In this document: one piece after another, positions 11,560-64,000 of the stretch
Position numbering within the stretch: position 1 is the first letter of the stretch
Layout of the letters: every line of letters begins with the position of its first letter
DNA from: a virus
Taxonomy: Duplodnaviria > Caudoviricetes
Length of the DNA: 64,000 nt
Virus record (IMG/VR): IMGVR_UViG_3300034096_000868
Span: 128-64,127 of that record
Direction: 5' to 3' (one strand)
The notes under the pieces: generated by a model
Told to the model about the DNA's origin: nothing
The model's database searches: none
The model's input: the letters and a program-made list of their open reading frames with translations, nothing else
Made by a program: the position numbers and the translations under genes

Positions 11560-11564
11560 AGTTC

Positions 11565-15906: not shown

Positions 15907-15911
15907 ACTAA

Positions 15912-16088
15912 ATGGAAAAAGAACTTAAAGAACTTTTAAAACTCAAAGAAAACGTAGTGAGGTGGAATATGTGTGCTGAACTCGATGAAAGGCTAGGATT
16001 AGACCCAACAAAATCAAATGAAAGTGCATTGTTTTACGAAAATGAATTAAATAGTAAATTGAAAAAGATTGTTGAAGCTTATGGGTAA
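15912..16088 (+). CDS. 58-aa hypothetical protein whose stop codon forms the first TAAC of array A
   Basis: MEKELKELLKLKENVVRW...KKIVEAYG* read by hand; TAA at 16086-16088. Confidence 0.55.
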   Translation: MEKELKELLKLKENVVRWNMCAELDERLGLDPTKSNESALFYENELNSKLKKIVEAYG

Positions 16089-16159
16089 CGGTTTCGGGCT
16101 TGGCGAAGTTTGCGAAGCGTTGGCTTGTGCGGTCGGGCAAATTGCGCCAAACCCGTGTT
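16087..16159. repeat. attC-like hairpin A1
   Basis: AAC GGTTT CGGGcTTGGCG..TTTGC / GCAAA..CGCCAAaCCCG T GTT; outer arm GTTATAAGAAGTAGC pairs with GCTATTTCTTATAAC at 16468-16482. Confidence 0.85.
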
Positions 16160-16198
16160 ATAAGAAGTAGCGGTTTATTAACGATAAATTTAATTAAA

Positions 16199-16468
16199 AT
16201 GGAAATAGAAAAACAAATTGATGATTTAACCTTTGAAAGATGGAGGTTTACATTTATGTATGGAACAATATTCTTAGATGGATATTGCTTACTGCAAAAA
16301 GAAAGCAAAAGGCACAAAAATTTTAAAGTGCTGAAACAATACGATAGAATAATAGGAAGGAGTAATACAATAGTGGAAAGTGAAGTGCCTTTTACTGATG
16401 AATTAAAAGCAGAAGCATTAAATCAATTTGTTTCTACGATAAAAGTTCTTAAATGGAGCGAAAGGTAG
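16199..16468 (+). CDS. cassette A1 hypothetical protein
   Basis: ATG 16199 after an A-rich leader; the track start at 16100 lies inside the hairpin. Confidence 0.65.
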   Translation: MEIEKQIDDLTFERWRFTFMYGTIFLDGYCLLQKESKRHKNFKVLKQYDRIIGRSNTIVESEVPFTDELKAEALNQFVSTIKVLKWSER

Positions 16469-16479
16469 CTATTTCTTAT

Positions 16480-16604
16480 AACGGTAAAATAATAAAAGCA
16501 GTAGCGATATGAAAGAACAAATTGAAAATATATTGATAAAGGTTGATGAAGGCACGATGCCTGTTCAACAAGCACTAAGCGAGCTATTGCTTTTATTTAG
16601 TGTT
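16480..16604. repeat. attC-like hairpin A2
   Basis: AATAAAAGCAGTAGC / GCTATTGCTTTTATT stem; arm GTTAGCGGTTCGTTGCC vs GGCAATGACCGCTAAC (16746-16761). Confidence 0.8.
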
Positions 16605-16760
16605 AGCGGTTCGTTGCCATCTATTGACCCATTAGATGACGAGAATAGCGAAATACATAAAATAGGTAGAGAAATAGCTGAAATGTCCGATGAAGAGTTT
16701 GATAATAATTGTAAAGCAATAACAGATATGCTGTCAAGGTCGAAAGGCAATGACCGCTAA
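16509..16760 (+). CDS. cassette A2 hypothetical protein (starts in the hairpin loop)
   Basis: reads through GTTAGCGGT (VSG); stop TAA is part of the terminal TAAC. Confidence 0.6.
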   Translation: MKEQIENILIKVDEGTMPVQQALSELLLLFSVSGSLPSIDPLDDENSEIHKIGREIAEMSDEEFDNNCKAITDMLSRSKGNDR

Positions 16761-16882
16761 CGGTCAAGTGTTGCCGAAGTGGGGGATTGTTAGTACAAAA
16801 GCCCATTAAAAGCACTACTGCCGAACACAGTACAAATGTTCATTAAATGCACGTTTGCCCCCCATTTTGGCAACACTATGTT
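16759..16882. repeat. attC-like hairpin A3
   Basis: AGTGTTGCCGAAGTGGGGG / CCCCCATTTTGGCAACACT; arm GTTGGTGGTTAGTGCC vs GGCATTACCACCAAC. Confidence 0.85.
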
Positions 16883-16922
16883 GGTGGTTAGTGCCTTTGT
16901 TAAACTGATTAAATAGAAAAAA

Positions 16923-17399
16923 ATGTCAAATAGAAATTTCAGAGGTCGGGTATTTCACTACTCAAATGATTGTGGCTGGGTTTATGGCGACTTTCATAAA
17001 ATGTATGATGGTAGTTTATACCATTATATAACTACATTACCTGACTTAGACAAAGACTGGCAAACTTCATATTATAATGTAGTTGCTGATACTATTACCC
17101 AAAGTACAGGATTAAAAGACAAAGATGGTAAAGAAATATTTGAAGGTGATATTGTTAAACATAAATTTCGTAGAATATGGCAAACTAAAGAACATATTTC
17201 AACAGTTGTTTGGTGTCAAGAATATTGCTGTTATTACTTGTTTGACGGTATTTGTAACCATAGAATGAGAGATGATATGGTTTATGAAATAATTGGTAAT
17301 TTCTTTGATAATAAGGATTTGGTAAAGGGCTATCCTCCTTGTCCAAAAGTAGAGCCATCAATAACAAATAAAAACTCATCCGATGACTTGCCATTTTAG
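16923..17399 (+). CDS. cassette A3: YopX-family protein
   Basis: FRG...WVYG...QSTGLKDKDGKEIFEGDIV...YEIIGN signature. Confidence 0.85.
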   Translation: MSNRNFRGRVFHYSNDCGWVYGDFHKMYDGSLYHYITTLPDLDKDWQTSYYNVVADTITQSTGLKDKDGKEIFEGDIVKHKFRRIWQTKEHISTVVWCQEYCCYYLFDGICNHRMRDDMVYEIIGNFFDNKDLVKGYPPCPKVEPSITNKNSSDDLPF

Positions 17400-17421
17400 G
17401 GTGTCTCGTGGCATTACCACC

Positions 17422-17547
17422 AACGTTAAACGGCTTTGTGACTGTGGTGGCAATAGAATTACTACTGTTCGTTACAGCACAAATGCCAAATAGGATTACC
17501 AAAGCTGAATATCAGCACATCAGCCACCATAGCACAAAACCGATGTT
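17422..17547. repeat. attC-like hairpin A4
   Basis: CGGCTTTGTGACTGTGGTGGC / GCCACCATAGCACAAAACCG; arm GTTGGTGGCAGGTTT vs AAACTTGCCACCAAC. Confidence 0.85.
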
Positions 17548-17586
17548 GGTGGCAGGTTTTTTTCTCGGTTTACAAATTTTAAAATT

Positions 17587-18072
17587 ATGCAAGTAATAGA
17601 AGAAATAGTAAAGATTTATCAAGCCAAAGACGGCACAAAATTCAAAGACAAAGGCGAATGTCAAACCTACGAAAAAGGTATTCCGTATGGTAATTATTAT
17701 GCTAAACTTTCAAACCTTAAAACTTTTGAAGTTACTGAAAACCATTTAAAACTAATAAAAAGAAATGTTATTGAATGGGTTTTTCATAGAGACGATTATA
17801 ATGCTGGTCATTTTTACCAAGATACAAAACGACCTTATGGAAATTCTGATTGGGTTGGTGATATTGCTGAAATTTTAGGAATTGAACCCGATTGCTCAAA
17901 TCCAAATGACGAAGACGAAAAATGGTTTTCTGAAAGTTTAGAGTACTTTTTAGTTTGTCATCATATTGATATGAGAATTGTAATGGAAATACTTTGTCAA
18001 AATTTGTCAATTCACAAAGGTAAATATGAAAGAGAAAGCGTTTATTCTTCGGACTGGGTGGCGGTCGCTTAA
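17587..18072 (+). CDS. cassette A4 hypothetical protein
   Basis: 161 aa; YQAKDGTKF..K.EC..YE N-terminus and KRPYGNSD motif. Confidence 0.7.
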   Translation: MQVIEEIVKIYQAKDGTKFKDKGECQTYEKGIPYGNYYAKLSNLKTFEVTENHLKLIKRNVIEWVFHRDDYNAGHFYQDTKRPYGNSDWVGDIAEILGIEPDCSNPNDEDEKWFSESLEYFLVCHHIDMRIVMEILCQNLSIHKGKYERESVYSSDWVAVA

Positions 18073-18082
18073 ACTTGCCACC

Positions 18083-18205
18083 AACGGTTCGCAGCTATAT
18101 TTAGTTGCGGATTTAGAATCACAAATTATCAAATTAGTAATAACTTAAATAGAAAGAAAAATGTCAAAGAAACCACAGAAACCGCAATTGAATATAGCTG
18201 TTGTT
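18083..18205. repeat. attC-like hairpin A5
   Basis: CAGCTATATTTAGTTGCGG / CCGCAATTGAATATAGCTG; arm GTTAGCGGTAGTTT vs AAATTACCGCTAAC. Confidence 0.85.
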
Positions 18206-18367
18206 AGCGGTAGTTTTTATTGGGTTCGTCCGTTCCATAAAGACGAGTTTGAACCTGCTAAATGTAAAGAACTATACGGAACAGATAAGCTATATTTTTT
18301 TTTCACAAATGGAAGTCGAATGGAAGTTGAACGTGCTTGGGAAGTAGAGCCGTTAAATTACCGCTAA
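18161..18367 (+). CDS. cassette A5 hypothetical protein
   Basis: 68 aa, identical to 59758..59964; starts in the hairpin loop and stops in TAAC. Confidence 0.7.
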   Translation: MSKKPQKPQLNIAVVSGSFYWVRPFHKDEFEPAKCKELYGTDKLYFFFTNGSRMEVERAWEVEPLNYR

Positions 18368-18412
18368 CGTTTTGCGTATAAAAAATCGTTTTAATGTTTT
18401 TTATACGCTGTT
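18366..18412. repeat. attC-like hairpin A6 (shortest, 47 bp)
   Basis: AAC GTTTT GCGTATAAAAAA / TTTTTTATACGC T GTT; arm GTTAGCAGTAGTAC vs GTATTACTGCTAAC (19491-19504). Confidence 0.85.
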
Positions 18413-18507
18413 AGCAGTAGTACGGATTTAAACCGCAAATGCTCATTCGGAGAACTGAACCTTTTTATTTTCTTTTTTGAGCGAGGACAAAATATTAAAA
18501 TAAAATT

Positions 18508-19491
18508 ATGACAATAGATTTAAGATACGGAGATACAATAGAACAAATGAAATTGATACCTGATAAAAGTATTGACTTTATTTGCTGTGATTTACCTTAT
18601 GGGACAACCGCTTGTATTTGGGATATAATTATACCATTTGATAAACTTTGGAGGGAATATAAAAGGATAATCAAAGATAAAGGAGTAATTGTATTGTTTG
18701 GTAGCGAACCATTTTCATCATTATTAAGAACATCTAATTTAGAGTGGTATAAATATGATTGGATTTGGGAAAAGAATAACGCAGGGAATTTTCAATTAGT
18801 AAATTATCAACCATTAAAAATACACGAAACCATATCAGTTTTTTATAATGAAACACCTAATATGGAATTTGCTAATATTATGGTTGAAAATATGAAAAGA
18901 CTAAACTTAAAGCAAATTGATATTTCAAAATTAGAACTTTCAAGAACAGGTGGAATGACAGGTTGGGTTACAAATAAAATGAACGGTTCTCAATTACCAA
19001 CAGAACAACAATGGAGTAAAATATGTGATTTGTTTGGTATTGAAAATAAATATGACGAAATACTTTTAACTGTAAAAAAGATTACATATAACCTTGAACT
19101 TGATGATACCAAATTAGTATTATCAAATAAAGGGAAAGCTGGAACATTAGGACATCTATCAAGTGAAAGTAAAAGAGAAACATACATACAAGATAAAACA
19201 GGTTATCCAAAAAGTATATTGAAATACAATAGAGAGAATGGATTACATCCAACTCAAAAACCTATACCATTGATGGAATTTTTAATAAAGACATATTCCA
19301 ATGAAGGTGAAACTGTATTAGATAATACGATGGGTAGTTGTTCAACAGGAATTGGATGTATAAATTTGAACCGAAACTTTATTGGGATAGATAATACAAA
19401 AAAGTATTTTAATATTTCTTTAAAGAGGGTGGAAGAAAAAAGAAAAGAAAAAGATTTTAACGTAGTAACTTCATTCGGAGATGGAATGTAG
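18508..19491 (+). CDS. cassette A6: beta-class N6-adenine/N4-cytosine DNA methyltransferase with an inserted HTH-like segment
   Basis: DLPYG (motif IV), HPTQKP, VLDNTMGSCSTG (motif I). Confidence 0.9.
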   Translation: MTIDLRYGDTIEQMKLIPDKSIDFICCDLPYGTTACIWDIIIPFDKLWREYKRIIKDKGVIVLFGSEPFSSLLRTSNLEWYKYDWIWEKNNAGNFQLVNYQPLKIHETISVFYNETPNMEFANIMVENMKRLNLKQIDISKLELSRTGGMTGWVTNKMNGSQLPTEQQWSKICDLFGIENKYDEILLTVKKITYNLELDDTKLVLSNKGKAGTLGHLSSESKRETYIQDKTGYPKSILKYNRENGLHPTQKPIPLMEFLIKTYSNEGETVLDNTMGSCSTGIGCINLNRNFIGIDNTKKYFNISLKRVEEKRKEKDFNVVTSFGDGM

Positions 19492-19532
19492 TATTACTGC
19501 TAACTTCTTTATTTACGCAACAAAAACACAAG

Positions 19533-45577: not shown

Positions 45578-48451
45578 TTAATCAAAATTTATTTTCAAAT
45601 TTCTGATTATTTTTTCCAAACAAGCTACTACTATTGAGTTGCCACCTTGACGATACAACTGCGAATCAGATAAACTATTCTTAGGATTGGCCTCATTGTA
45701 TTTTTTCACATTATCCATAAAACTTTCCTCGAAGTCCATCAAACGGAATACTTCGGTTGGGGTTAATCGGCGTATTCTTTTGTTCTGATTTGTAGCTAAT
45801 CCACTTCTATCGCTTCTTAAAGCAGGAGAATATTTATCATAAACCCTTGTTTCTTCTCCAAAACTATTAGTTAAATCTAAAATAACAGGCTCTTGTGTTC
45901 CACCTTGAATAAAGTTTTGCTCAACTGCAATCTTAGGCTCTTGATTCCCACCACCCATAGTATGAATTGTTGGTGCAACACCATTTTTATCATAAACTCT
46001 ACCACTTTGCTCATGTGTTTTATCCCACTTGCCACCCGTTAGTTGATATTCTACTATCGGATTAGGTTCAGAACTAACCATAACTAAGTTATCTTTTTGA
46101 ACAGTTGTAATTGCATTGCTAGTGCTACTCTCATTTGGTTCAATATTCTGCTCAATAACTCCATCCTCATTATATCTGCCTCGCATAGCAACTATTGTAG
46201 GTTCGTCAAGTAATATATTTTTACTTCTAGCATCCGTATCTAAAGTAGTCATTACTCCATTTACATCATAAACCCTATTATGCTGAAATGGTTGTTTGCC
46301 TCCACTCTCTTTACTAGGATTTAATTGTCTTACTTCTGGAGTGTTATCTTCAATCACACCACTCTCCACATATCCATTGGCATAACCATGTGTTCTTGCA
46401 CACATATTTGGACTTACTCCATTATCTGAATAAACTTGACTTGCTTGTGTATCTTGATTGATAAATCCTACTTTGAGAATATTATCAGTAGGACATAAAG
46501 CTGCGTTAGCTCTTATTGTTACTGCTATTGAGTTTTCATCTTTATAATCTACTGCAAATCCTGTTCCTTTTTTATTATGCCTATCAGCATGACTTGTTAG
46601 CATATTTAACATACTATCACTCAAAAAATACTTTTCATCTACAATAGGTTCTAAAACATCTTTTAATCTTAGTTTTAAAACTTCTTTTATAGGGAATCTG
46701 AAACTATTATCTGCATCATCACGAATACCAACAATAAATATCCTTTCTCTATTTTGTGGCACTCCATGTTCTTTTGCATTTAGCACCTGGAAATAGATAT
46801 GATATGGCACACTATCCTCATAAGGAATAAAAGTTGCATTGCCATTAATTGATTTACCCCCTAGATAATTAATCCATTCGGAAAAAGTCTTACCATACTT
46901 AGCTTTTTTATCCGTTTTGTCATGTGAAAGCAAACCTTTGACATTTTCAAAAATGAAGTATTTGGGTTTATTTTCACGTATGAAGTCTAGTGAACTGAAA
47001 AACAAGACACCTCGTTTGTCATCTTTACCCTTTCTTTTACCAGCCAAAGAAAATGATTGGCAGTTATGTACTATTGCTTGATTAGCGGTATAAGAATGAT
47101 CGTTTTCAACCGTTATATCATAAACTTCTTCAACTTCTTCGGTTTGTTTAATGTATTTTATTGGATACCATATTTTATCGTCAATAACGACAGCGTTAGA
47201 TTGCTTACGCATTTCTTTTCTAAATTCTAATACATAATAATCTCTTTGATTAACTACTCTGCCTTGTATTATTGTTGTGTTTGGAGTTTTAACTATTCTT
47301 AAATTAGAATTTACATTGTGTATTTTAGCAATACAAAGTTGCAAACCCATCAATAATTCTTTACTAATAGAAGTTGCTCTAAATGCATCCTTATGAATAT
47401 GTCCATCTCCATCCATATATCCATTAACGAAATGTTTTAATATGTCAATAGGTAGGTTTATAATAGATTGAGGTATCCTTTTATTTATTGCTCCTTTACC
47501 TAAACCTATTTCTTTTATAAGATTTACTAATCCGTTTGAAAATATAAATAATTTGCGAACTCCATTTATTTCTTTACTAATATGATGTTTTACTTTTATT
47601 TTGGTAGATATTTCATCAACTTTATCTTTTCCTATTGCTAACATGACAGCGTCTCCTTTTGATTTGCCTTTATATTTCGACTCTCTTAACCATCCGTCAG
47701 CGACATATCTGCCTAATATGTAAGCTATTTCTTCTGTTATGCTATATTTATTTTCAATTAATTGAGGTATATTAATGCCAATAAAATGATTCTTAGTTAG
47801 ATTTTTAGCTTCTATCCATTTAGGTTCACTAAATACTCTTATTTGTGTTCTATTTTTATATACATAAGACTTTTCTCTAACATAATATTTATGATTCTCT
47901 GTGGTTTTAGTTTCTAATATTCCTTGAGCTTTTACATTTAATATTTTAGAGTATTTACTTCCTTTCGCTATTACCTTTTCGTACTTATTATTGTGAGTTA
48001 ATACCATATCTCCAATATTAATATCTTTAATTTGAACAAATCCTTCGCTTGTGTTTATTAAAGTATCTCCAGAAAAGCAAGGTACAGAGGACATATACAA
48101 GTCGATTGGATCTACCGGAACTTCTCTTTCATACATATTAAAAGGAAAATAGAATGAGAAAGTTTTAGCAAACTCATTGGCATCTACTAATATTTGCTTA
48201 TCTTCATCACATACTTCAATACTAGCATCCATTAGTGCAATCCTTTTTACTTCATCACAAAAGAACTTATGTTTTTTAGATTGTGCAATCTGAACATCTT
48301 TATCTGTTCCATATTGAATACAATAGTTTAGCCTAGCATAGTAATCAAAATCACACGCAAAACTTTCCTCATAGTCAATACCTAATCTTTTAACTGCTTG
48401 AATTAGAGAACCTACTCCACAGCAGTCCGAACCAACTTTAATTTTAGCCAT
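45578..48451 (-). CDS. C5-cytosine DNA methyltransferase containing an intein
   Basis: P-[intein]-CQSFS..GK (motif IV), FENVKGL (VI), PQNRERIF (VIII), RRLTP.E..RLM, YRQGGNSIVV (X). Confidence 0.9.
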   Translation of the reverse strand: MAKIKVGSDCCGVGSLIQAVKRLGIDYEESFACDFDYYARLNYCIQYGTDKDVQIAQSKKHKFFCDEVKRIALMDASIEVCDEDKQILVDANEFAKTFSFYFPFNMYEREVPVDPIDLYMSSVPCFSGDTLINTSEGFVQIKDINIGDMVLTHNNKYEKVIAKGSKYSKILNVKAQGILETKTTENHKYYVREKSYVYKNRTQIRVFSEPKWIEAKNLTKNHFIGINIPQLIENKYSITEEIAYILGRYVADGWLRESKYKGKSKGDAVMLAIGKDKVDEISTKIKVKHHISKEINGVRKLFIFSNGLVNLIKEIGLGKGAINKRIPQSIINLPIDILKHFVNGYMDGDGHIHKDAFRATSISKELLMGLQLCIAKIHNVNSNLRIVKTPNTTIIQGRVVNQRDYYVLEFRKEMRKQSNAVVIDDKIWYPIKYIKQTEEVEEVYDITVENDHSYTANQAIVHNCQSFSLAGKRKGKDDKRGVLFFSSLDFIRENKPKYFIFENVKGLLSHDKTDKKAKYGKTFSEWINYLGGKSINGNATFIPYEDSVPYHIYFQVLNAKEHGVPQNRERIFIVGIRDDADNSFRFPIKEVLKLRLKDVLEPIVDEKYFLSDSMLNMLTSHADRHNKKGTGFAVDYKDENSIAVTIRANAALCPTDNILKVGFINQDTQASQVYSDNGVSPNMCARTHGYANGYVESGVIEDNTPEVRQLNPSKESGGKQPFQHNRVYDVNGVMTTLDTDARSKNILLDEPTIVAMRGRYNEDGVIEQNIEPNESSTSNAITTVQKDNLVMVSSEPNPIVEYQLTGGKWDKTHEQSGRVYDKNGVAPTIHTMGGGNQEPKIAVEQNFIQGGTQEPVILDLTNSFGEETRVYDKYSPALRSDRSGLATNQNKRIRRLTPTEVFRLMDFEESFMDNVKKYNEANPKNSLSDSQLYRQGGNSIVVACLEKIIRNLKINFD
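47063..48079 (-). mobile_element. intein (339 aa) with a LAGLIDADG homing endonuclease
   Basis: starts CFSGDTLI, block B TTENHKY, LGRYVADG and FVNGYMDGDG motifs, ends VYDITVENDHSY...VHN, followed by Cys+1. Confidence 0.92.
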
Positions 48452-48460
48452 ATATGTATA

Positions 48461-48643
48461 TTATTTTAAGTATCTAAATAAGAAAAAAGGATTGAATGCA
48501 TTTTTTTCAGGTATAGTATCAATGCCATCATTTCTACTATTGCTTTCCTCACTGATATTGTGCAAGTAAATAGTGAAGTAATTGTAAATCACCAGGACAC
48601 CATAAAAGAATAGTATGATTATTAGTAGTAGTTCCATGTTCAT
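48461..48643 (-). CDS. small membrane protein
   Basis: hydrophobic N-terminus; lies just downstream of a -7 element at 48663-48670. Confidence 0.4.
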   Translation of the reverse strand: MNMELLLIIILFFYGVLVIYNYFTIYLHNISEESNSRNDGIDTIPEKNAFNPFFLFRYLK

Positions 48644-48662
48644 TATTTTAGTTTTAGAACTG

Positions 48663-48670
48663 CAAATATA
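48663..48670 (-). promoter_or_regulatory. -7 promoter element (minus strand)
   Basis: CAAATATA = TATATTTG on the minus strand. Confidence 0.55.
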
Positions 48671-48679
48671 TAAAATTAA

Positions 48680-50140
48680 ACCAATAACAAAAAATATTTC
48701 GCAATATTAAATAATCACTTATCCACATTTTCAACCATCCAAATATCCAAAATCGTAGTCCTACAACTACAAATCGTAGTCCTACGAATAACAATGTTAT
48801 TCCTACAACTATCATTTTCCTCTGAAACCCACGCCAGACAAGGAAACCCCTATCTTATCTTATATACTCTAAAATACAACCCAAGTTTATCCACATTTTT
48901 AAACAAGAAAATAATCCAATAAAAATAAACCCAACCATAAAACCAAAAATCAACCACCAAATAATATTGTTTTTTTTATCAAAATTTCTACCACAATTTT
49001 TCAACCACCAAAAAACCAAATAACAAAAACCCCAAGACCAATCTAAATTTATTCTAACAATCAAACCAACAAAGCAATAATCAAAATTAATGATACACAC
49101 TAACTTTTTAGGTATGTCCTTAACTACCCCTCCTACATATTTCAAAAACAAAACTACCCCCTATATGATTTGCAAAAAGTTTCAAAACAAATTCATTTTT
49201 ATTTGGCTGGTTTAAATTGTGATATTATTGTATGGATTGTAATAGCTTAATCTTAATTACACAGATGCTCAAATTAAAGACTTTATATACTTGCATGATA
49301 GTTTGTACATCTCTATCAAAGAAAGTTTAAATTTAGCACCTTAAAATCACAATACCAAAATAGCTTTATTTAGAATTAATCTAAATAGTATCACTGACTT
49401 AGTGACATATTCTATTTAACATAATATAATATTATAAGACACTGTACTATTTACTATACAAAATAGCTATTGTATAAAAAATGATCTATTTTATCAATTT
49501 GTTTGAAGCAAATATCTATAAAAATAAATTCAAAACCTCTGGAAGCCTTGTCTTTGTTACAAAATACCTCATCTAAAAAAAGTCTATTGTTTGAATTGGT
49601 ATGATTGGAATAGTTTATTTAGACAGATTCTAAATAAGGAACTATTGATTTTATTGGTTTTGATTGAGATATGGTTTTGTTATTTAGAATGATTCTAAAT
49701 AGTGGTATAATAATAAAATTTAGGTTAGCCTAAATATTTGTTTTTAGGTTGTTTGTTTGGATCATTGCTTTATATTTTTTATTGAGTAAATTATATACTA
49801 TTGTATTAAATAGGTATGTTTTTTTTATTTTTATATATTCGGATGATAAAAGAGTATATAAATAGGTTAAAGAGGTATTTTTTTTTATATATGGTGCTTC
49901 CTTTGGTCGCACTATGAGTGATTGTAATGTATAAATATGCTTTGTTGGTTGGTTGTATCCTGGTTAATGGTTTCAGATATTAGTGTAAAACTTGTATTTA
50001 TTGCAACTTTTAATAATTAAAATATATATTTTTTAAGTACATTTTTTATGCTATTTTATCAAATATTATCTAAATAGATGTTACAACATATAACTTTTTT
50101 AGTGCTTCAAAGCCTTATAAACATTGAAAAACTAAAAATA
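48680..50140. other. long non-coding region (candidate origin / genome-end / control region)
   Basis: about 1.5 kb without credible ORFs between divergent promoters; contains direct repeats, palindromes and a dif-like site. Confidence 0.6.
49414..49442 (-). other. dif-like XerC/XerD site
   Basis: ATTTAACATAA (reverse complement of the canonical XerD arm TTATGTTAAAT) + TATAATA + TTATAAGAC. Confidence 0.55.
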
Positions 50141-50152
50141 AATGCAAAATAT

Positions 50153-50185
50153 TTTGCATTAATAAAAAAAATATATTTATATTTG
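50153..50185 (+). promoter_or_regulatory. Bacteroidota-type promoter for the early-gene cluster
   Basis: TTTG (50153) ... TATATTTG (50178-50185). Confidence 0.7.
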
Positions 50186-50235
50186 CATCATCAAATTAAA
50201 CAAATATTTATTAATCAAATCAAAAATTAAAAAAA

Positions 50236-56565: not shown

Positions 56566-56864
56566 GAATAGAATCGCAAGGCACAAAAAACTTTAAGAAA
56601 TTCATGCTTAAAGCAAAAAAAATAAATTATAGCAAGAATTTGAAAAACTTAAAAAATGAATTTAAGCTAGATGACAGGCAGTATGATTTGCTATATAGAT
56701 ACTTAATTATGGTATTTTGCAAGCCTACAATTCAAGTTTATATTGGTGGATCAGAAATACCTCATATAAAGAAGAATATTGAGAAAGCAAATCAGATATA
56801 CTTGTACGCACAAGCATTTGTTAGTGAGAATAAAATATTGCTTAATCAAGAAATAATTGATTAA
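56562..56864 (+). CDS. hypothetical protein
   Basis: 100-aa ORF, last gene before array B. Confidence 0.5.
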   Translation: MRIESQGTKNFKKFMLKAKKINYSKNLKNLKNEFKLDDRQYDLLYRYLIMVFCKPTIQVYIGGSEIPHIKKNIEKANQIYLYAQAFVSENKILLNQEIID

Positions 56865-56880
56865 CGGAGCAATTTTGCTC

Positions 56881-56997
56881 AACGTCCGAGTGCTTGGCGA
56901 AGTTGCCGAACACAAAAGTTAAACTGAAAAACAAAAGTTGAAATTATGGATAAAGTTGAATTGAAAGACGAAACGGCAATTTTGCCAAACCCGTGTT
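56881..56997. repeat. attC-like hairpin B1
   Basis: TTGGCGAAGTTGCCG / CGGCAATTTTGCCAA; arm GTTATGTGCTGGGC vs GCCTTGCACATAAC. Confidence 0.8.
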
Positions 56998-57569
56998 ATG
57001 TGCTGGGCGGTTTAAAGAAGTATTCTGTTATTTACGCTGACCCTGCTTGGAGTTACGATTTTAAAGAGCCTACTGCATCCAAAGGTGGGGCGAAAGGAAG
57101 TGGTTATTCAGCAGGTGTTAATTACTACTATGGAACAATGACAACTAAACAGATACTTGAATTGCCTGTAAAAAACATTTGCGAAAAGGATTGTGTGCTT
57201 TTTCTATGGGCGACTAATCCGCTTTTACCCGAAGCCTTAGAAACGATGAAGGCTTGGGGGTTCAAATACAAAACGATGATTACTTGGCACAAAGAACGAT
57301 GCAAAGGAATGGGATATTGGTTTCGTGGGCATACCGAACATATTTTAGTAGGGGTAAAAGGGAATGTAAAAGCGTTTCGTTCTTTGGAACACAATATAAA
57401 AAAGTTGCCCGTAGAAAAGCATAGCAAAAAGCCTGATGAATTTAGGCAAATGATTGAAGCAGTTACAGGCAATTTAGGAAATAGAATAGAATTGTTTGCA
57501 AGGAATAACCACGAGGGATGGGATGCTTGGGGAAATGAAGTAGGTTCGTCTGTCGAAGTAGGATGGTAG
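56946..57569 (+). CDS. cassette B1: MT-A70-family N6-adenine methyltransferase
   Basis: YSVIYADPAW, LFLWAT, WGFKYKT..W.K, G.GYWFRG.TEH, HSKKP, IELFAR, GWDAWGNE. Confidence 0.9.
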   Translation: MDKVELKDETAILPNPCYVLGGLKKYSVIYADPAWSYDFKEPTASKGGAKGSGYSAGVNYYYGTMTTKQILELPVKNICEKDCVLFLWATNPLLPEALETMKAWGFKYKTMITWHKERCKGMGYWFRGHTEHILVGVKGNVKAFRSLEHNIKKLPVEKHSKKPDEFRQMIEAVTGNLGNRIELFARNNHEGWDAWGNEVGSSVEVGW

Positions 57570-57579
57570 CCTTGCACAT

Positions 57580-57702
57580 AACGGTCTAGGGCTTGACGCA
57601 GGTAGGAATAGAAAGCATAATTGCTTGTTTACTTACCAATGCTGAAAAGAGTGCTAAAGCCGAATAAAGCACCAAAGCCCTACTTGCGTTCAAACCCTTG
57701 TT
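57580..57702. repeat. attC-like hairpin B2
   Basis: AGGGCTTGACGCAGGTAGG / CCTACTTGCGTTCAAACCCT; arm GTTATATGCCGTTTT vs AAAATGGCATATAAC. Confidence 0.85.
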
Positions 57703-57751
57703 ATATGCCGTTTTTATCGGCTCAAATTTTTAACTTTTAAATAATAAATAT

Positions 57752-58087
57752 ATGTCTAAAATAACACAAGAAGATTATACAAAAGCACTTGAAACTATTA
57801 AAAAATTTCAATGTCAATGCTCAAAATGCGGAACACAATTTGGTGATAGGTGGGAATGGAATGCAAATTCATTCAAACTACAATTAAATATAGATTGCCA
57901 AAGTACAGACGCTTTATTTGGCGAAAAAGCAAATGAAATAGGGTTTAATCATCCTGCAATAGAAAAAGGTGCAGGGTATCAAAGATTAACGATTTCAAGC
58001 GGTAGAGAATTGCCTTATAGACTTTGTCCATCTTGTCATAGAAAGTTTTTTCGTCTTATAGGGGACTTTCTGCAAAATGGCATATAA
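57752..58087 (+). CDS. cassette B2: Zn-finger-like protein
   Basis: CSKCG ... LCPSCH; stop codon in TAAC. Confidence 0.7.
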   Translation: MSKITQEDYTKALETIKKFQCQCSKCGTQFGDRWEWNANSFKLQLNIDCQSTDALFGEKANEIGFNHPAIEKGAGYQRLTISSGRELPYRLCPSCHRKFFRLIGDFLQNGI

Positions 58088-58176
58088 CGTGATGCGGCTT
58101 TGTGTCTGTTTGCCCCTTGCTCAAAGTTTCAAGTTATCACAAATGTTGATGGGGCAAATAGCACAAAACCGCTGTT
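58086..58176. repeat. attC-like hairpin B3
   Basis: GCGGCTTTGTGTCTGTTTGCCCC / GGGGCAAATAGCACAAAACCGC; arm GTTATAGGCAGTAGGG. Confidence 0.85.
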
Positions 58177-58227
58177 ATAGGCAGTAGGGATTTTTAGCAG
58201 AATGTTTAATTTAAAAACAAATAAAAA

Positions 58228-58665
58228 ATGAACAACTTAAAAACAAAAGAAGATAGACAAGAAGCTATCAAACAAATTGAAAAAAGTTTTTTAACTACAA
58301 TCAAAAGTAATGGGCTTGAACTTTCAGAAGAAGCTGTTTGCAGAATAAACCAAAATAGTATTGAACTTGGTATTTGTGCAATAGGAAAGTATGCTGAAAA
58401 AGGTTATCAAATGGCTTTTGCATCGGCTATTGAATTGTATGCAAAAAGCTATGATGATGAACTTGGATTTGGAAGAAAAGAAAACGAAATAAACTTTGGT
58501 AGTTCTGGTTCTTTTAATCCATCTGAACGAGAAAGTTATTGGAGAACTATACACGCTGCATCTGTATTGAAAAATTGGGATATTGTTTCAGAAATTGTAA
58601 ATACCCATTGCAAAATGTATTGTGATTTGAGCAAGAAAATCTTTGAGGTAAATGTTCAATCGTAG
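58228..58665 (+). CDS. cassette B3 hypothetical protein
   Basis: 145-aa ORF filling the cassette. Confidence 0.7.
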   Translation: MNNLKTKEDRQEAIKQIEKSFLTTIKSNGLELSEEAVCRINQNSIELGICAIGKYAEKGYQMAFASAIELYAKSYDDELGFGRKENEINFGSSGSFNPSERESYWRTIHAASVLKNWDIVSEIVNTHCKMYCDLSKKIFEVNVQS

Positions 58666-58683
58666 CACGTCTGCCCTATTGCC

Positions 58684-58805
58684 TACGTTGAGCATATACG
58701 AAGGCAGGGCTTTGAAACTCAAATGCTCGTTTACTTCCGAAAGTTTAATCAACATATAAAAGCTGAAAGTTTGCACTTCTGCCCTGCTTTTGTATATGTA
58801 TTGTT
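58684..58805. repeat. attC-like hairpin B4 (junction AAC damaged)
   Basis: CATATACGAAGGCAGGGC / GCCCTGCTTTTGTATATG; arm GTTGGCAGTAGTGCT vs AGCATTACTGCCAAC. Confidence 0.8.
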
Positions 58806-58846
58806 GGCAGTAGTGCTTTTTGTCAAACTAGAATAAATTTAAGAAT

Positions 58847-59137
58847 ATGGAATTATGTAATTTTTCAAAGGCTTGGGTTGGTAATTGTAAAAATGAAAAA
58901 CCTTGCAAAGAACACGCTGAAATTAAATGCGGTTCTTGTGGTGAGCCTGCCACAAGAGAATGTGCTGAAACTGGTCAATTTGTTTGCGGTGTTCCTCTGT
59001 GTGATAATTGTGAGCATACTATCTACGAAGATGGTACAAATGGAGGTATTGGTTTTAATCAACAACGACCACACGAAGGAATGAAGTCACATTGTAAAAA
59101 GTCAGAACAAAAATTTAAAAGCTGGTATGAGCGGTAG
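58847..59137 (+). CDS. cassette B4: Cys-rich Zn-binding protein
   Basis: multiple CxxC / CxxH motifs in 96 aa. Confidence 0.7.
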   Translation: MELCNFSKAWVGNCKNEKPCKEHAEIKCGSCGEPATRECAETGQFVCGVPLCDNCEHTIYEDGTNGGIGFNQQRPHEGMKSHCKKSEQKFKSWYER

Positions 59138-59156
59138 TGTCGGTAGCATTACTGCC

Positions 59157-59237
59157 AACGTTTTGCAGATTGGCGAAGTTGCAAAATTGCGTTGGATTTG
59201 TGCGGTGGGATTTTGCAATTTTTGCCAATGTGCTGTT
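59157..59237. repeat. attC-like hairpin B5
   Basis: GCAgATTGGCGAAGTTGCAAAAT / ATTTTGCAATTTTTGCCAATgTGC; arm GTTATCAGCAGTTCT vs AGAATTGCTGATAAC. Confidence 0.85.
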
Positions 59238-59276
59238 ATCAGCAGTTCTTTTTTCACACTTAAATAATTATCAAAA

Positions 59277-59678
59277 ATGAATACATTAAAATTAACACTA
59301 AAAAAACAATGGTTTGACCTTATCAAAGAAGGTATCAAAACCGAAGAGTACAGAGAAATAAAGCCTTATTGGTTTGAAAGATTAGTTTTTCAATATGAAA
59401 AGGCTTTTAAATATTGCACTGGATATGATTACAAGCAACAACTTTATGTAAACGAAGGAATACAACATACTCTTTCTGAAAGTAAAAAATCAATGGTTGC
59501 AATGAAACCTTTTGACTTTGTAGAATTTACAAATGGATATAATTCTACAAGCCCAAAAATCACTTTAGAGTGTCAAAATATTATAATTGGGCAAGGATTA
59601 GAAGAATGGGGAGCAGTCAAGGGCGAAAGATATTTTATAATCAAACTCGGTCGTGAGGTTGGTCGGCAGAATTGCTGA
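59277..59678 (+). CDS. cassette B5: ASCH/PUA-like domain protein
   Basis: L.L.LKKQWFDLI..G.KTEEYRE.KPYW..RL ... F.NGY ... YF.I.LG. Confidence 0.8.
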   Translation: MNTLKLTLKKQWFDLIKEGIKTEEYREIKPYWFERLVFQYEKAFKYCTGYDYKQQLYVNEGIQHTLSESKKSMVAMKPFDFVEFTNGYNSTSPKITLECQNIIIGQGLEEWGAVKGERYFIIKLGREVGRQNC

Positions 59679-59679
59679 T

Positions 59680-59970
59680 AACGGTTCGCAGCTATATTTA
59701 GTTGCGGATTTAGAATCACAAATTATCAAATTAGTAATAACTTAAATAGAAAGAAAAATGTCAAAGAAACCACAGAAACCGCAATTGAATATAGCTGTTG
59801 TTAGCGGTAGTTTTTATTGGGTTCGTCCGTTCCATAAAGACGAGTTTGAACCTGCTAAATGTAAAGAACTATACGGAACAGATAAGCTATATTTTTTTTT
59901 CACAAATGGAAGTCGAATGGAAGTTGAACGTGCTTGGGAAGTAGAGCCGTTAAATTACCGCTAACGTTTT
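59680..59970 (+). repeat. exact dispersed repeat, copy 2 (cassette B6 = A5, including its hairpin 59680-59802)
   Basis: identical by eye to 18083..18373. Confidence 0.95.
59758..59964 (+). CDS. cassette B6 hypothetical protein
   Basis: identical 68-aa translation to 18161..18367. Confidence 0.7.
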   Translation: MSKKPQKPQLNIAVVSGSFYWVRPFHKDEFEPAKCKELYGTDKLYFFFTNGSRMEVERAWEVEPLNYR

Positions 59971-60084
59971 CGGGCTTTGCGTAGTAGGGGATTAAATGCA
60001 CTACGCTTGGTCTTAGCACAAATGTTTATTAGAAGCAGATAGTTTGGTTTAGCACTATCGCCCCTATTACGCAAAGCCCGTGTT
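59963..60084. repeat. attC-like hairpin B7
   Basis: CGGGCTTTGCGTAGTAGGGG / CCCCTATTACGCAAAGCCCG; arm GTTATATGAAGGTGGG vs CCCACTTTCATATAAC. Confidence 0.9.
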
Positions 60085-60180
60085 ATATGAAGGTGGGATT
60101 TTCACGCACTACACTTAAATAGAAGCACGTAAAAAGAAAAAGAAAAAATGAGCGTGGGAAACAATTTAATTTAAACAAAA

Positions 60181-60726
60181 ATGGGAACAAGAAATTTAAC
60201 AATGGTTATTAACCAAGAAGGAGAAAAGAAAGTAGCACAATACGGACAATGGGATGGTTATCCATCTGGAGTTGGGGTAGGTGTTCTTAAATTCCTTAAA
60301 GACAAAGAGGTGTTTGAAAAATTCAAAGTCAACTTATCTAAAGTGAGATTTTTAGATGAAGAAGGTGTTGATAAGGAATTTATTGAAAGCTACAATAAAA
60401 ATGCTCCACAATGGAGCAATGAACCAGACAACAGAACCGAAGAACAAAAACGTTGGTTTTCTACTTATTGCAATCGTGATTTAGCAGAAGAAGTTTTAAC
60501 CAATATCGCCAACTCTACTGACAAAGAAATTGTTTTAATGGATAGAGAAAACACCGCAAAAGGTGATGGATGGGTAGAATATTCGTATGTTATAAACTTG
60601 AAAGAAAATACGCTTGGCGTTTATGGACACATTGACCAAGAGCCAATGAAAGTTTACAAACTTGATGAACTACCTGAAGAAGATGTTTTCGTTTCTGAAT
60701 TGGAAGGAGTTGAAGAAGAAGATTAA
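60181..60726 (+). CDS. cassette B7 hypothetical protein
   Basis: MGTR......QY.QWDGYP.G.G ... EY.YVI.L motif pattern seen in phage hypothetical proteins. Confidence 0.75.
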   Translation: MGTRNLTMVINQEGEKKVAQYGQWDGYPSGVGVGVLKFLKDKEVFEKFKVNLSKVRFLDEEGVDKEFIESYNKNAPQWSNEPDNRTEEQKRWFSTYCNRDLAEEVLTNIANSTDKEIVLMDRENTAKGDGWVEYSYVINLKENTLGVYGHIDQEPMKVYKLDELPEEDVFVSELEGVEEED

Positions 60727-60800
60727 AAAGAGCGTGGGCGGATTTTTTCTTTTTCTTTCTCACGAAAGTTCAATCGAAGCACGTCTGCCCACTTTCATAT

Positions 60801-61033
60801 AACGGCATTGGGCTAAACGCAGTAGGGGTTTCCTACCTGTAAAGATGGAATGGCAGACAATTCAAGTTTAACTTTGTTCTTGATTGTTTGGACGACATCC
60901 CCCTATTGCGTTTTAACCCATGTTATAAGTCTGGTGGCGGGGCGTAGTGATTAAGGTAACAATAAGGGCAGAGTAAACTGCACAAACCCTAAATTAAATC
61001 CACTACCATTAATGCCCGCCACTTGCTTATAAC
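60801..61033 (+). other. cassette B8: ORF-less cassette with hairpin 60801-60924
   Basis: TGGGCTAAACGCAGTAGGGG / CCCCTATTGCGTTTTAACCCA; arm GTTATAAGTCTGGTGGCGGG vs CCCGCCACTTGCTTATAAC; no ATG-initiated + strand ORF over about 25 codons seen. Confidence 0.75.
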
Positions 61034-61116
61034 GGTTGGGTGTATGAGAAGGTTTGCTTGTAGAAACTTTCAAATTACAACTGAACTTAATAGCAAACTT
61101 TCTTATACACTTTGTT
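61031..61116. repeat. attC-like hairpin B9
   Basis: GTGTATGAGAAGGTTTGCT / AGCAAACTTTCTTATACAC; arm GTTATGTGTTGTTTT vs AAAATGACACATAAC. Confidence 0.85.
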
Positions 61117-61143
61117 ATGTGTTGTTTTTAAATTAAATAAAAT

Positions 61144-61371
61144 ATGGAAACAGGAAATTTAATTAAATCAACCAATTTCAACACAACACCATATTGGGTT
61201 GTAAAATGTGATAATTCAAATTTAATTGGTAATAGAAATGGTGAATTACCAATAGACCCTTTGAGTTTTAATTTTCATCCTTGGTCTATCTTAGAAAACA
61301 GAACGGTTAAATTTGAATTGGTTGAAATTGGTAGTGATGATAGATTGAAATGGTATGCTCGTCTAAAATGA
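61144..61371 (+). CDS. cassette B9 hypothetical protein
   Basis: 75-aa ORF whose stop lies in the terminal arm. Confidence 0.65.
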   Translation: METGNLIKSTNFNTTPYWVVKCDNSNLIGNRNGELPIDPLSFNFHPWSILENRTVKFELVEIGSDDRLKWYARLK

Positions 61372-61376
61372 CACAT

Positions 61377-61452
61377 AACGTTTTGCAGATAAGCGAAGGC
61401 ACAAATAGCGTTGGCTTTAGCGAGGAATTTGGGCTTTTGCTTATGTGCTGTT
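61377..61452. repeat. attC-like hairpin B10
   Basis: GCAgATAAGCGAAGGC.CAAAT / ATTTG.GCTTTTGCTTATgTGC; arm GTTAGCAGTAGGTTT vs AAACTTACTGCTAAC. Confidence 0.85.
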
Positions 61453-61497
61453 AGCAGTAGGTTTTTTAACTAATTATAAATTTAAAATAAATACAAA

Positions 61498-61731
61498 ATG
61501 GAAAATCAAGAAGTATTAAAATTCACTTGGAAAAAAGGAATTAAAGAAGTAAAACCTGCACACCCAATGGTTCAAAATTGGATGTTTACAGAAGAAACAG
61601 AAGAACAAGCAAGTTTAGCACATTATATGGCTGTTGTTGCTGAAAAGAATGGATTAACGGCAAATGATTTGCAACACTTATTCCCTGCTGTCCTTCGGAT
61701 GTTGAAAGATAGTTCAGCGTGGTCTAAGTAA
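61498..61731 (+). CDS. cassette B10 hypothetical protein
   Basis: 77-aa ORF filling the cassette. Confidence 0.65.
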   Translation: MENQEVLKFTWKKGIKEVKPAHPMVQNWMFTEETEEQASLAHYMAVVAEKNGLTANDLQHLFPAVLRMLKDSSAWSK

Positions 61732-61741
61732 ACTTACTGCT

Positions 61742-61795
61742 AACGTGTATATGTATTCAATACTCACAATTTATTAATAATCAAAAATATATATT
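61742..61795. other. candidate attI-like primary insertion site
   Basis: last AAC of array B, not followed by a hairpin, 51 bp before the integrase ATG. Confidence 0.55.
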
Positions 61796-62629
61796 ATGGA
61801 TTTTCTAAAGTATCAAAATAAATTTAGAATTGATTTAGATTTAAAATATTCTAATTCTTTGCAAACTAGAAATAATTATTTTTCTTGTGTTGTTAATTTT
61901 TTACAACATTTTAAAAATGAAAAAGAGCCTAAATCAATAAGTACTGATTCTATTAAATTATATTTGCTTTCTTTTAAAACTATAAATACTCGTAGAGCAA
62001 ACTTATGTGCAATAAAAGCATTTTACAAGCTAACTGTGAATATGCCTAATAAAATAGATAGAGTTCCTTTTCCTCAAAAAGAAAGAAGATTACCTATTAT
62101 TATAGATCAAATTGATGTACAGAAAATGTTTGATGTGTGTTCCAACTTGAAACACAAGTGTGTAATGGCAGTTCTCTATGGTACTGGAGTGAGAATATCC
62201 GAATTAATAGGCATTAAATTAAGTGATATTAGAAGAAATGAAAAGACTATTAGAATAATAGGCAAGGGGAATAAAGAAAGATTTGTGCCACTAAATGATA
62301 GCCTACTTCAATTAATAACAAATTATTGGAGAGAATATAAAACTAAAATATGGTTGTTTGAAAATGATTTATCACATACTCAATATAGCAAAAGAAGTGT
62401 TGGTTTGTTTTTAAAATCATTTAAAGAAAAAGCAAACATAAAAAGTCCAGTAAGTCCTCATAAATTCAGACACTCACACGCTACTGCATTATTAGAGCAA
62501 GGAACAGATTTAAGAATCATACAAAAGGAACTTGGACATAACTCAATAAAAACAACCCAATTATATACTCATGTATCTACAAATATTATAAGTAAAATAA
62601 ACTCACCATTAAACAATATAAACATATAA
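61796..62629 (+). CDS. tyrosine recombinase, integron-integrase-like
   Basis: catalytic R (YGTGVRISE), K (GKGNKER), HxxR (HKFRH), H (LGH), Y (TTQLYTHV); the YTHV....SPL ending resembles IntI. Confidence 0.92.
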   Translation: MDFLKYQNKFRIDLDLKYSNSLQTRNNYFSCVVNFLQHFKNEKEPKSISTDSIKLYLLSFKTINTRRANLCAIKAFYKLTVNMPNKIDRVPFPQKERRLPIIIDQIDVQKMFDVCSNLKHKCVMAVLYGTGVRISELIGIKLSDIRRNEKTIRIIGKGNKERFVPLNDSLLQLITNYWREYKTKIWLFENDLSHTQYSKRSVGLFLKSFKEKANIKSPVSPHKFRHSHATALLEQGTDLRIIQKELGHNSIKTTQLYTHVSTNIISKINSPLNNINI

Positions 62630-63000: not shown

Positions 63001-63669
63001 ATGCAATATCAAAGCAAAATAAACAATATCTTAGCTGATGTTATAAGAGGAACTAGAAACGAAATACAATACACAATTACAGATGCTAATTATGATATTC
63101 ACAATATATTTAATGGTAAAGTAACCCCAGAAATACTAGAAAAAACAAGCACTATTGATTATTTAATCAATGAATCTTGTTCAGTATTTGGCATACAAGA
63201 TAGAGAAGAAATATTTAGTCCATCTAGGAAAAGAGCTAGGGTATTAGCTAGACAAACTTGTATGTATTTGCTAGACAAATATAGAGCTGGAACTTTAGAG
63301 CAAATAGGTAGAATGTTTGGAGGTCGAGACCATTCAACAGTTATTCATAGCAAAAATGCAATTCAAAATATAATTGATGTTGAAGATGCTTTTTATGATA
63401 AGGTTGCATTAGTAGAAGAGAGACTTGTTGAATACATGAACTCGTCTAATAAGGCAATAAATGTAACAGAATTAACGCCACCAAAACCACCTTTTAACAT
63501 ACATTTGCTTGTTGAAAAAATAAATCAAATTAGACATAAGCAATTATTTTCAGTAGACCCTGAATTAATAAAATCTAGTAAAATTGAAAAAGGTACGTGT
63601 GATATAATTTTGTCTTTAATAAAAGAAATAAGTAATGAACAAGAGGCAACTATACTATCAAGCAAATAA
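63001..63669 (+). CDS. protein with a DnaA C-terminal (domain IV) HTH
   Basis: SRKR..V.ARQ..MYL......TL..IG..FGGRDHSTV.HS; no AAA+ domain. Confidence 0.85.
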   Translation: MQYQSKINNILADVIRGTRNEIQYTITDANYDIHNIFNGKVTPEILEKTSTIDYLINESCSVFGIQDREEIFSPSRKRARVLARQTCMYLLDKYRAGTLEQIGRMFGGRDHSTVIHSKNAIQNIIDVEDAFYDKVALVEERLVEYMNSSNKAINVTELTPPKPPFNIHLLVEKINQIRHKQLFSVDPELIKSSKIEKGTCDIILSLIKEISNEQEATILSSK

Positions 63670-63898
63670 AGAACGAATAAAAGCAAAGCAAAGGGAATGG
63701 AGAGCTAAAAATCCAGACTTGGTATATGCAAGTAAAGTTCATTTTAGAGCAAAATATCAAAAAGAATTACATGATGTTTACATTAAGGAAGTGCTAGTGA
63801 ATAGAAAAGGATACAAACGCTCTGAAATAACTCCAGAACTTATCGAAATTCAAAGAAATATTATAAAACTAAGTAGATATGTTAAACGAACTAAATAA
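63635..63898 (+). CDS. basic hypothetical protein
   Basis: YYQANKERI...REW..KNP and L.D.YI..L.......I.PELIE..R patterns. Confidence 0.6.
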   Translation: MNKRQLYYQANKERIKAKQREWRAKNPDLVYASKVHFRAKYQKELHDVYIKEVLVNRKGYKRSEITPELIEIQRNIIKLSRYVKRTK

Positions 63899-64000
63899 AG
63901 CCTTATTAGGGCAAATAAAGAAAATTGAATCTGAAAAGAATTTAGATACAGAGGTGTTAAAATCAAAAGAAATTTGTAGATTGAGCAATCAAGTTATAAA

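Follow-up and report, generated by a model that had tools for sequence, protein, structure and literature searches.

The closest described counterparts of the phage locus analysed here are the integrons (IntI/attI/attC), comprising class 1 and sedentary chromosomal integrons. Their integrases carry an insertion, the additional domain with helix I2, which serves as their defining feature and as a means of detecting integrons. Within canonical attC, it is the better-folding strand, the one with the G:T mispairs, that is cut in 5'-AAC-3', according to the relevant passages of PMC5027507. The passages of Smyshlyaev et al. 2021 (PMC8138268) on the integron-like subgroup of simple tyrosine recombinases describe the insertion as 'not fully conserved'. 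Cassette arrays have been reported in phages as well. Qi et al. 2023 (PMC9892861) retrieved 17 CALINs in phages by means of IntegronFinder and HattCI, including one in the virulent Polaribacter phage P12002L with methyltransferase cassettes, and IntI1 recombined one predicted attC site of this phage into attI1. In the article text of PMC9892861, the word Xer does not occur and no phage recombinase is named; its passages on these phages report no cognate integrase and interpret the arrays as pieces of integrons that are carried from one bacterium to another.

The window, i.e., the whole stretch of 64,000 nucleotides that was analysed, covers nearly all of a 64,127-nt IMG/VR record and represents a freshwater Flavobacteriia-type phage with a GC content of about 31%. 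DNA matches in phage collections were restricted to short pieces of Flavobacterium, Polaribacter, and Cellulophaga phages. Besides other large structural proteins, the window encodes the following proteins:

4504-6330: terminase large subunit
6332-8545: portal protein

The CheckV completeness estimate of the record was 61%. A closely related contig (L002; positions 10142-16831) bridges the window end (63630-64000) to its start (1-5237) across approximately 1.1 kb, indicating a circularly permuted genome of about 65 kb and a near-complete record. A non-coding stretch of 1.8 kb (48450-50230) lies between divergent gene blocks and contains short direct repeats (e.g., around 48750-48800) and an inverted repeat (49351-49387 and 49616-49652); this could be a replication origin or a regulatory region. 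Adjacent to it, a 956-aa protein (45578-48451, minus strand) displayed DNA methyltransferase matches together with nuclease, helicase, and primase-like PHROG matches.

The gene under study and the site preceding it are the following:

61796..62629, plus strand: tyrosine recombinase gene (277 aa, ATG start; core-binding and catalytic domains, without the IntI insertion)
61733..61765, plus strand: attI-like end site (variable half-box, TAAC with the AAC at 61742-61744, and GTGTATATGTA)

By Pfam, the recombinase has only two domains, the catalytic one (PF00589, 8.6e-41) and, N-terminal to it, a SAM-like core-binding one (PF13495, 3.4e-06), and no arm-binding domain is present in its 277 residues. 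R133, K157, H222, R225, H248, and Y257 were invariant among 27 aligned homologues, and the enzyme is, judged from its sequence, catalytically intact. Among the motifs quoted in the first-pass annotation of this DNA, GKGNKER (residues 156-162), TTQLYTHV...SPL, and the segment WLFENDLSHTQYSKRSV (residues 185-201) were retrieved in the open reading frame (ORF); the region quoted as LP..I...V was present as well, albeit one residue off, the actual sequence being LPIIIDQIDV. The same annotation had suggested that the I2 insertion is missing, and three lines of evidence agree with it. Firstly, in the genome search, the integron integrase profile TIGR02249 aligned with the recombinase as two separate segments (profile positions 14-187 and 246-314), leaving profile positions 188-245 without a counterpart in the protein. 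Secondly, the spacing between the motifs GKGxKxR and HxxRH was 66 residues in the window recombinase and 65-66 residues in the phage-clade proteins (21 of 27, where the pattern matched), compared with 70-73 residues in the XerD and XerC rows with a pattern match and 107-108 residues in bona fide IntI (four of six, where the pattern matched), the six IntI having been picked by TIGR02249 with 403-463 bits. Thirdly, the AlphaFold2 model of the recombinase (pLDDT 86.3) contained helices at residues 168-181 and 199-212, with short strands only at residues 182-198 and no extra helix between the two. The IntI insertion that is missing from the phage clade comprises roughly 40 residues. The 277-aa protein is a real and intact, though insert-less, relative of integron integrases.

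All curated NCBIfam profiles considered were matched below their cut-offs, namely XerA_Arch (NF040815; 194.5 bits, cut-off 220), XerD (182.7 bits, cut-off 329.6), XerC (177.6 bits, cut-off 335.15), integron integrase TIGR02249 (156.9 bits, cut-off 265, split in two stretches), and PRK15417 (96.4 bits, cut-off 435). As had been anticipated, IntI-specific profiles would miss this protein, TIGR02249 and PRK15417 both staying below cut-off and the former matching in two pieces; nor did it score as a bona fide IntI with I2, its 156.9 bits comparing with 403-463 bits for real IntI. A phylogenetic tree was built by a quick IQ-TREE search with SH-aLRT support only (71 rows, 280 columns), after dropping three rows that duplicated XerD rows and trimming five long proteins to their C-terminal 320 residues; XerA, XerH, and phage-integrase rows were not part of the set. 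A branch with SH-aLRT support of 100 parted the 15 XerC/XerD rows from the other 56, comprising 28 rows of the phage clade (support 98), six IntI rows (support 100), and 22 relatives from Bacteroidota that lack the insert. The proposal that the phage enzymes form a sister clade of IntI thus stands as to the side of the split from XerC/D on which they fall. As to the sister position itself, the tree is consistent with it but does not single it out, since IntI nests among the Bacteroidota relatives (supports 90-91), which intervene; the node between the phage clade and IntI had a support of 91.

Pairwise comparisons scored higher with XerD (119-138 bits) than with IntI (84-105 bits). Similarly, a search against sequences of solved structures returned XerA-like chains first and IntI4 (2a3v) fifth, and in the Foldseek search XerA (5hxy) held the first rank and IntI4 (2a3v) the sixth, the TM-scores lying near 0.5 and not separating Xer from IntI. 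This Xer-type fold and these Xer-type best matches (XerA, 5hxy and 4a8e; XerD, 1a0p) would suit a housekeeping enzyme, i.e., a lysogeny integrase or a Cre/Xer-like multimer resolvase with a double-stranded target site close to its gene, where cassettes would pile up or be moved by others, for instance by host integron integrases. Such genes are indeed taken as markers of a temperate lifestyle in passages of flavobacterial phage papers (PMC8776804). This explanation is nevertheless considered unlikely, one point against it being the size of the protein, 277 aa without an arm-binding domain, another being its distribution. A search with the alignment of the 27 homologues yielded 298 relatives on viral contigs, from which 80 loci were kept, whereas the best match in bacterial genomes (one genome per species, 185,579 species) was 44% identical and lay on a contig of a metagenome-assembled genome (MAG) with three upstream sites of its own. 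No homologue above 37% identity was found in cultured phages. The recombinase clade appears to be almost confined to viral contigs, and a role in lysogeny seems unlikely in view of these low identities to bacterial and cultured-phage proteins.

Bacterial relatives of about 580 aa with a long N-terminal extension occurred on three contigs (L101, L100, and L098). On the first of these, a Flavobacterium MAG contig (L101; 7080-13646), the ORFs after the recombinase gene lie on its strand, and behind each of them is a site of the window's hairpin family in opposite orientation; this layout corresponds to the canonical orientation of genes and sites, with the recombinase gene pointing into the array. 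Furthermore, one viral contig of 87.8 kb (L006 and L040) contained two recombinases of the clade, 74% and 48% identical to that of the window, with sites upstream of each.

Upstream of the recombinase gene, and also in a second region of the window, small plus-strand ORFs (56.9-61.7 kb and 16.1-19.5 kb) were parted by imperfect palindromes, which had z-scores from -1.9 to -4.9 when folded as single strands. The elements of these two regions, referred to as array 2 and array 1, respectively, are the following:

56881..61744, plus strand: cassette array 2, about 10 cassettes (first core AAC at 56881-56883, last AAC at 61742-61744)
56881..56997, plus strand: hairpin site t1 (scanner score 30), in or next to which the MT-A70 methyltransferase ORF starts
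56946..57569, plus strand: MT-A70 DNA methyltransferase, cassette cargo of array 2 (PF05063, 1.2e-30)
57580..57702, plus strand: hairpin site t2 (scanner score 37; identified by scanner and fold)
58086..58176, plus strand: hairpin site t3 (scanner score 45), with copies 83-91% identical in other phages
58684..58805, plus strand: hairpin site t4, with a TAC core replacing AAC, spotted by eye and missed by the scanner
59157..59237, plus strand: hairpin site t5 (scanner score 40)
59680..59802, plus strand: hairpin site t6 (scanner score 43), the loop of which holds the start codon of a 68-aa ORF
59680..59970, plus strand: 291-nt cassette, array 2 copy (68-aa ORF at 59758-59964)
59963..60084, plus strand: hairpin site t7 (scanner score 50)
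60801..60924, plus strand: hairpin site t8 (scanner score 39), followed by an ORF-less cassette at 60925-61033
61031..61116, plus strand: hairpin site t10 (scanner score 40)
61377..61452, plus strand: hairpin site t11 (scanner score 37)
16087..19504, plus strand: cassette array 1, six cassettes (terminal AAC at 19502-19504)
16087-16159, 16480-16604, 16759-16882, 17422-17547, 18083-18205, and 18366-18412, plus strand: hairpin sites of array 1
18083..18373, plus strand: 291-nt cassette, array 1 copy, 100% identical to 59680..59970
18508..19491, plus strand: N6_N4 DNA methyltransferase, cassette cargo of array 1

Neither a recombinase gene nor an attI-like motif was found beside array 1. The cassette ORFs were all co-directional with the recombinase gene, each with a hairpin upstream. 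The scanner used to find the sites, which was modelled on the sites of the window itself, looked for AACG followed by a bulge of 4 nt and an anchored stem, GTT being preceded by one or two bases, with a cut-off score of 26. At or above this score, 15 plus-strand sites were found in the window, all within the two arrays, compared with none in 20 strand-scans of Markov shuffles; the two minus-strand matches were palindromic echoes. An initial ungapped scanner had been too permissive (about 13 matches per strand in shuffles) and was replaced.

Several hairpins overlap with coding sequences. Start codons lie within the hairpin loops of several cassettes (18083-18205 in the window; 6354-6524, 6925-7049, and 7599-7722 in L002), and one cassette harbours an entire 56-aa ORF within its hairpin loop. 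In L002 at 6997-7266, the right arm of the hairpin codes for part of a lipoprotein-like signal peptide. The first array hairpin of that contig (6150-6275) contains two stretches resembling tRNA T-arms, although ARAGORN called no tRNA in this tRNA-like cassette.

The window and the 80 related viral loci together contained 211 distinct sites, which follow one plan: AAC-G, a bulge of 4 nt, a covarying stem of about 20 bp, a variable loop, and T-GTT. As AAC-G in the left arm and GTT in the right arm are imposed by the scanner, conservation was counted beyond these bases. A T preceded AAC in 85% of the 211 sites, a T preceded GTT in 96%, and an A followed GTT in 88%; the bulge after AACG was mostly (G/T)T(T)N, and the right arm displayed a conserved T at position -14 (93%) and A at position -6 (90%). 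The modal site length was 120-127 nt (114 of 211). RNAalifold, applied to 60 sites, predicted 13 stem pairs, all 13 with compensatory changes, and a G.T pair was kept in 47 of the 60. The sites are conserved in structure and not in sequence. In 185 of 212 sites, the plus strand gave the better fold of the two strands (mean energy of -17.2 kcal/mol, against -14.6 kcal/mol for the minus strand), which is partly an effect of site selection. That these hairpins follow another code than canonical attC had been suggested beforehand and is in line with their one-sided 4-nt bulge in the AAC arm and conserved G.T mispairs; in canonical attC, the passages of PMC5027507 place the extrahelical bases on the arm opposite to the bulge side seen here. 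Canonical attC sites beside real IntI genes were sought as a contrast, but yielded too few clear sites.

The unit delimited by these sites can be read from their boxes. The right box of one site and the left box of the next were complementary at a mean of 5.17 out of 7 positions, with at least six in 81 of 157 pairs, whereas the two boxes of one hairpin were complementary at a mean of 2.31 positions (at least six in 2 of 220) and random box pairs at a mean of 2.19. Since this complementarity spans the gene and not the hairpin, a cassette would consist of G, hairpin, gene, and a terminal AA, with exchange at the 5' AAC of the coding strand. It would thus begin with a structured site and end with a half-box complementary to its own right box. 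The cassette genes all lie on the strand bearing the exchanged AAC.

The same rule extends to the end of array 2, as the right box of the last cassette and the variable half-box of the attI-like site are complementary. The terminal AAC lies 54 nt upstream of the recombinase ATG in the window and 54-56 nt before the recombinase start in most of the 56 rows listed, within the motif nTAAC|TAYTATATGTA; the strict attI-like pattern was present in 57 of 75 loci. Across the 80 viral loci, 242 plus-strand sites precede the recombinase gene (0.657 per kb upstream) and five follow it (0.009 per kb downstream), a linkage that is about 70-fold one-sided. A same-strand site occurred within 1.5 kb of the recombinase start in 60 of the 62 loci with at least 1 kb upstream, some of these loci being near-duplicates, and 51 of the 62 contained two or more sites. 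These homologues, 41-100% identical to the window recombinase, therefore do adjoin hairpin arrays, contrary to the outcome that the first-pass annotation had named as fatal to its proposal. No conserved partner genes were found downstream of the recombinase (a 98-aa ORF in 3 and a DnaA_C-like ORF in 4 of 80 loci). Two of these features speak against a housekeeping enzyme with a site of its own nearby. On the one hand, the half-box at the conserved motif always matches the last cassette, which argues for exchange at that very site. On the other hand, the geometry of array, end site, and gene is retained down to 41% recombinase identity.

Comparison of near-identical phages indicated that the units that differ are cassettes. 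The recombinase encoded by L002 is identical to that of the window, and the flanks are 95% identical up to position 56884 and 99.4% identical from position 61740 onwards, whereas the stretch in between (56885-61739, an array of 4.9 kb) is without similarity to the corresponding 1.8-kb array of L002 (6154-7944); the break points are at AAC|G. Similarly, another contig (L188) is 98-99% identical to the window over 8.5-23.3 kb and differs solely in the last cassette of array 1, encoding an N6_N4 methyltransferase in the window (18370-19500) and an MT-A70-like one in L188 (10208-10919), with breaks at the AACs at 18366-18368 and 19502-19504. The core at the break points measures 3-4 nt and has unrelated sequence on both sides. 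In addition, the 291-nt cassette is duplicated across both arrays, 100% identical from core to core. Cassette pieces recur at 80-95% identity in contigs with recombinases that are just 41-50% identical, one of these matches stopping exactly at the core at 59159. Contigs of four lake-water runs gave no usable evidence of excision, the joints found being short-sided (20-42 letters). Some lake-water contig matches begin or end at cores (59680 and 59682). In one run (X4), window positions 56755-57005, 58010-58260, and 61022-61523 reached contig depths of 57-225x, compared with about 7x for the flanks (up to about 30-fold). These lake-water observations are taken to show no more than that the hairpin sequences are repeated in the community, being common to many of its other genomes.

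Gene swaps in T4-type phages have been proposed to occur via recombination at promoter stem-loops. Likewise, the present hairpins could act at the level of RNA or transcription, as terminators, sites of RNase processing, or controls of translation, with swaps resulting from homologous or illegitimate recombination at repeats and with the adjoining recombinase being coincidental. The hairpins do lie on the transcribed strand, conserve G.U-compatible wobbles, and often have a start codon in the loop; the coding-strand G.T mispairs fit an RNA-level role of the hairpins as well. Qi et al. also allow for off-target events at GTTRRRY-like repeats, whether by homologous or by illegitimate recombination (PMC9892861). 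This explanation is judged very unlikely here. Break points confined to a core of a few nucleotides amid unrelated sequence, cassette ends that are complementary to each other and not to the neighbour, and the one-sided linkage to a recombinase at a fixed distance all run counter to it, the complementarity of the ends in particular not being predicted by homologous recombination. Moreover, an Rfam search of the window returned no family at gathering score, with a single chance-level snoRNA match in array 2.

The anatomy of the locus, its conserved linkage, the missing insert, and the differences between near-identical phages, which match cassettes exactly, are direct observations, and the gene probably codes for the recombinase of an integron-like gene-cassette platform carried by the phage. 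The system is integron-like in its working, yet it is not an IntI integron, and the protein very probably serves as the recombinase of this phage analogue of integrons. As the catalyst of cassette exchange, the enzyme would recognize and cut the hairpins, presumably as folded single strands, and the strand used would be the coding one, with exchange at its 5' AAC. As the variable half-box always matches the last cassette, exchange is likely to take place at the attI-like site itself. Whole cassettes, hairpin plus gene, may thereby be excised, integrated, and exchanged, with co-infecting phages as the probable partners. DNA methyltransferases make up much of the cargo that could be identified, suggesting anti-restriction genes. 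The data lean towards a fuller proposal, namely that Bacteroidota phages possess an integron analogue of their own, in which an I2-less, Xer-like enzyme recombines folded coding-strand hairpins at an attI-like site and by which anti-defence genes such as methyltransferases are traded during co-infection.

Phages with arrays but without such a gene bear on this proposal. The complete genome of the cultured Flavobacterium phage lillamy9-1 contained eight sites of the window's family and no PF00589 match, and the scanner found eight such sites on the gene strand of Polaribacter phage P12002L, for which no tyrosine recombinase is annotated. An enzyme encoded in cis thus appears unnecessary for the upkeep of an array. 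The published recombination of a predicted P12002L attC into attI1 by IntI1 (PMC9892861), in a phage with sites of this family, lends support to the proposed cassette platform. That arrays persist in phages without any such gene, and that IntI1 is able to recombine a Polaribacter phage site (PMC9892861), are also points in favour of the housekeeping alternative described above. Since a canonical IntI1 recombined one P12002L site (PMC9892861), the code of the phage sites may differ less from the canonical one than their shape would imply, and these sites could be moved by integron integrases of the host. If the phage enzyme does recombine hairpins, the IntI insertion is not required for recombining folded sites. 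If the proposal holds, it would account for the differences in methyltransferase genes among closely related flavobacterial phages and for the existence of the CALINs reported in virulent phages. Many 'integrases' of flavobacterial phages would then not be signs of lysogeny, and an 'integrase' gene need not mean a temperate phage. A widespread phage clade with the layout of an integron minus the insertion would escape insertion-based integron searches.

Compared with XerC/XerD and archaeal XerA, the recombinase shares the two-domain architecture, the size, the lack of an insertion, and the best profile and structure matches. It differs from them in scoring below their curated cut-offs, in being parted from XerC/D by a branch with a support of 100, and in that its gene is phage-borne and adjoins arrays, instead of belonging to a chromosomal dif system. 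The integron-like subgroup treated by Smyshlyaev et al. resembles the insert-less relatives on the IntI side of the present tree, but its insert-less members are, in the passages concerned, without described cassette arrays or a phage platform (PMC8138268). With respect to the virulent-phage CALINs (PMC9892861), array 1 and the array of lillamy9-1 are of the same kind as those described in its passages on these phages, whereas array 2 differs, as a recombinase gene of the phage itself and an attI-like site complete the platform there. Since P12002L and lillamy9-1 carry sites of the window's family, the arrays are not wholly new, having been described in part as CALINs without a recombinase. 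Literature searches, which covered the article text of PMC9892861, returned no publication that connects phage cassette arrays with a non-IntI recombinase and no published description of a cognate insert-less recombinase, the attI-like site, or the reversed gene orientation.

With integrons proper, whether class 1 or sedentary chromosomal, the locus has in common a tyrosine recombinase gene, a fixed insertion site, and a row of cassettes, the latter being delimited by imperfect hairpins with nothing in common but AAC/GTT cores and structure. The modal site length of 120-127 nt is counted among the resemblances as well. Exchange at the 5'-AAC-3' of the better-folding, G.T-bearing strand, as described for canonical sites in passages of PMC5027507, would be a further likeness. 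Read on the minus strand, the locus even displays the canonical order, with the gene pointing away, an attI with G|TT, and then the cassettes. The phage enzyme differs in its lack of the IntI insertion and in its scores below the IntI cut-offs, the catalytic R-K-H-R-H-Y being shared. Similarly, the sites have a one-sided 4-nt bulge in the AAC arm, whereas canonical ones have a central bubble and extrahelical bases in the opposite arm, and both the site family and the attI motif are unlike the canonical ones, although the gene adjoins an attI-like site and an array. Canonical cassette genes read away from attI and have their attC downstream; the phage cassettes do not follow this arrangement, each gene lying on the strand that is left non-coding in canonical integrons. 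Being on the exchanged strand with the hairpin upstream, the phage cassette genes are read towards the recombinase and cannot use an attI promoter. Lastly, the replicon that carries the platform is, in this case, a phage genome.
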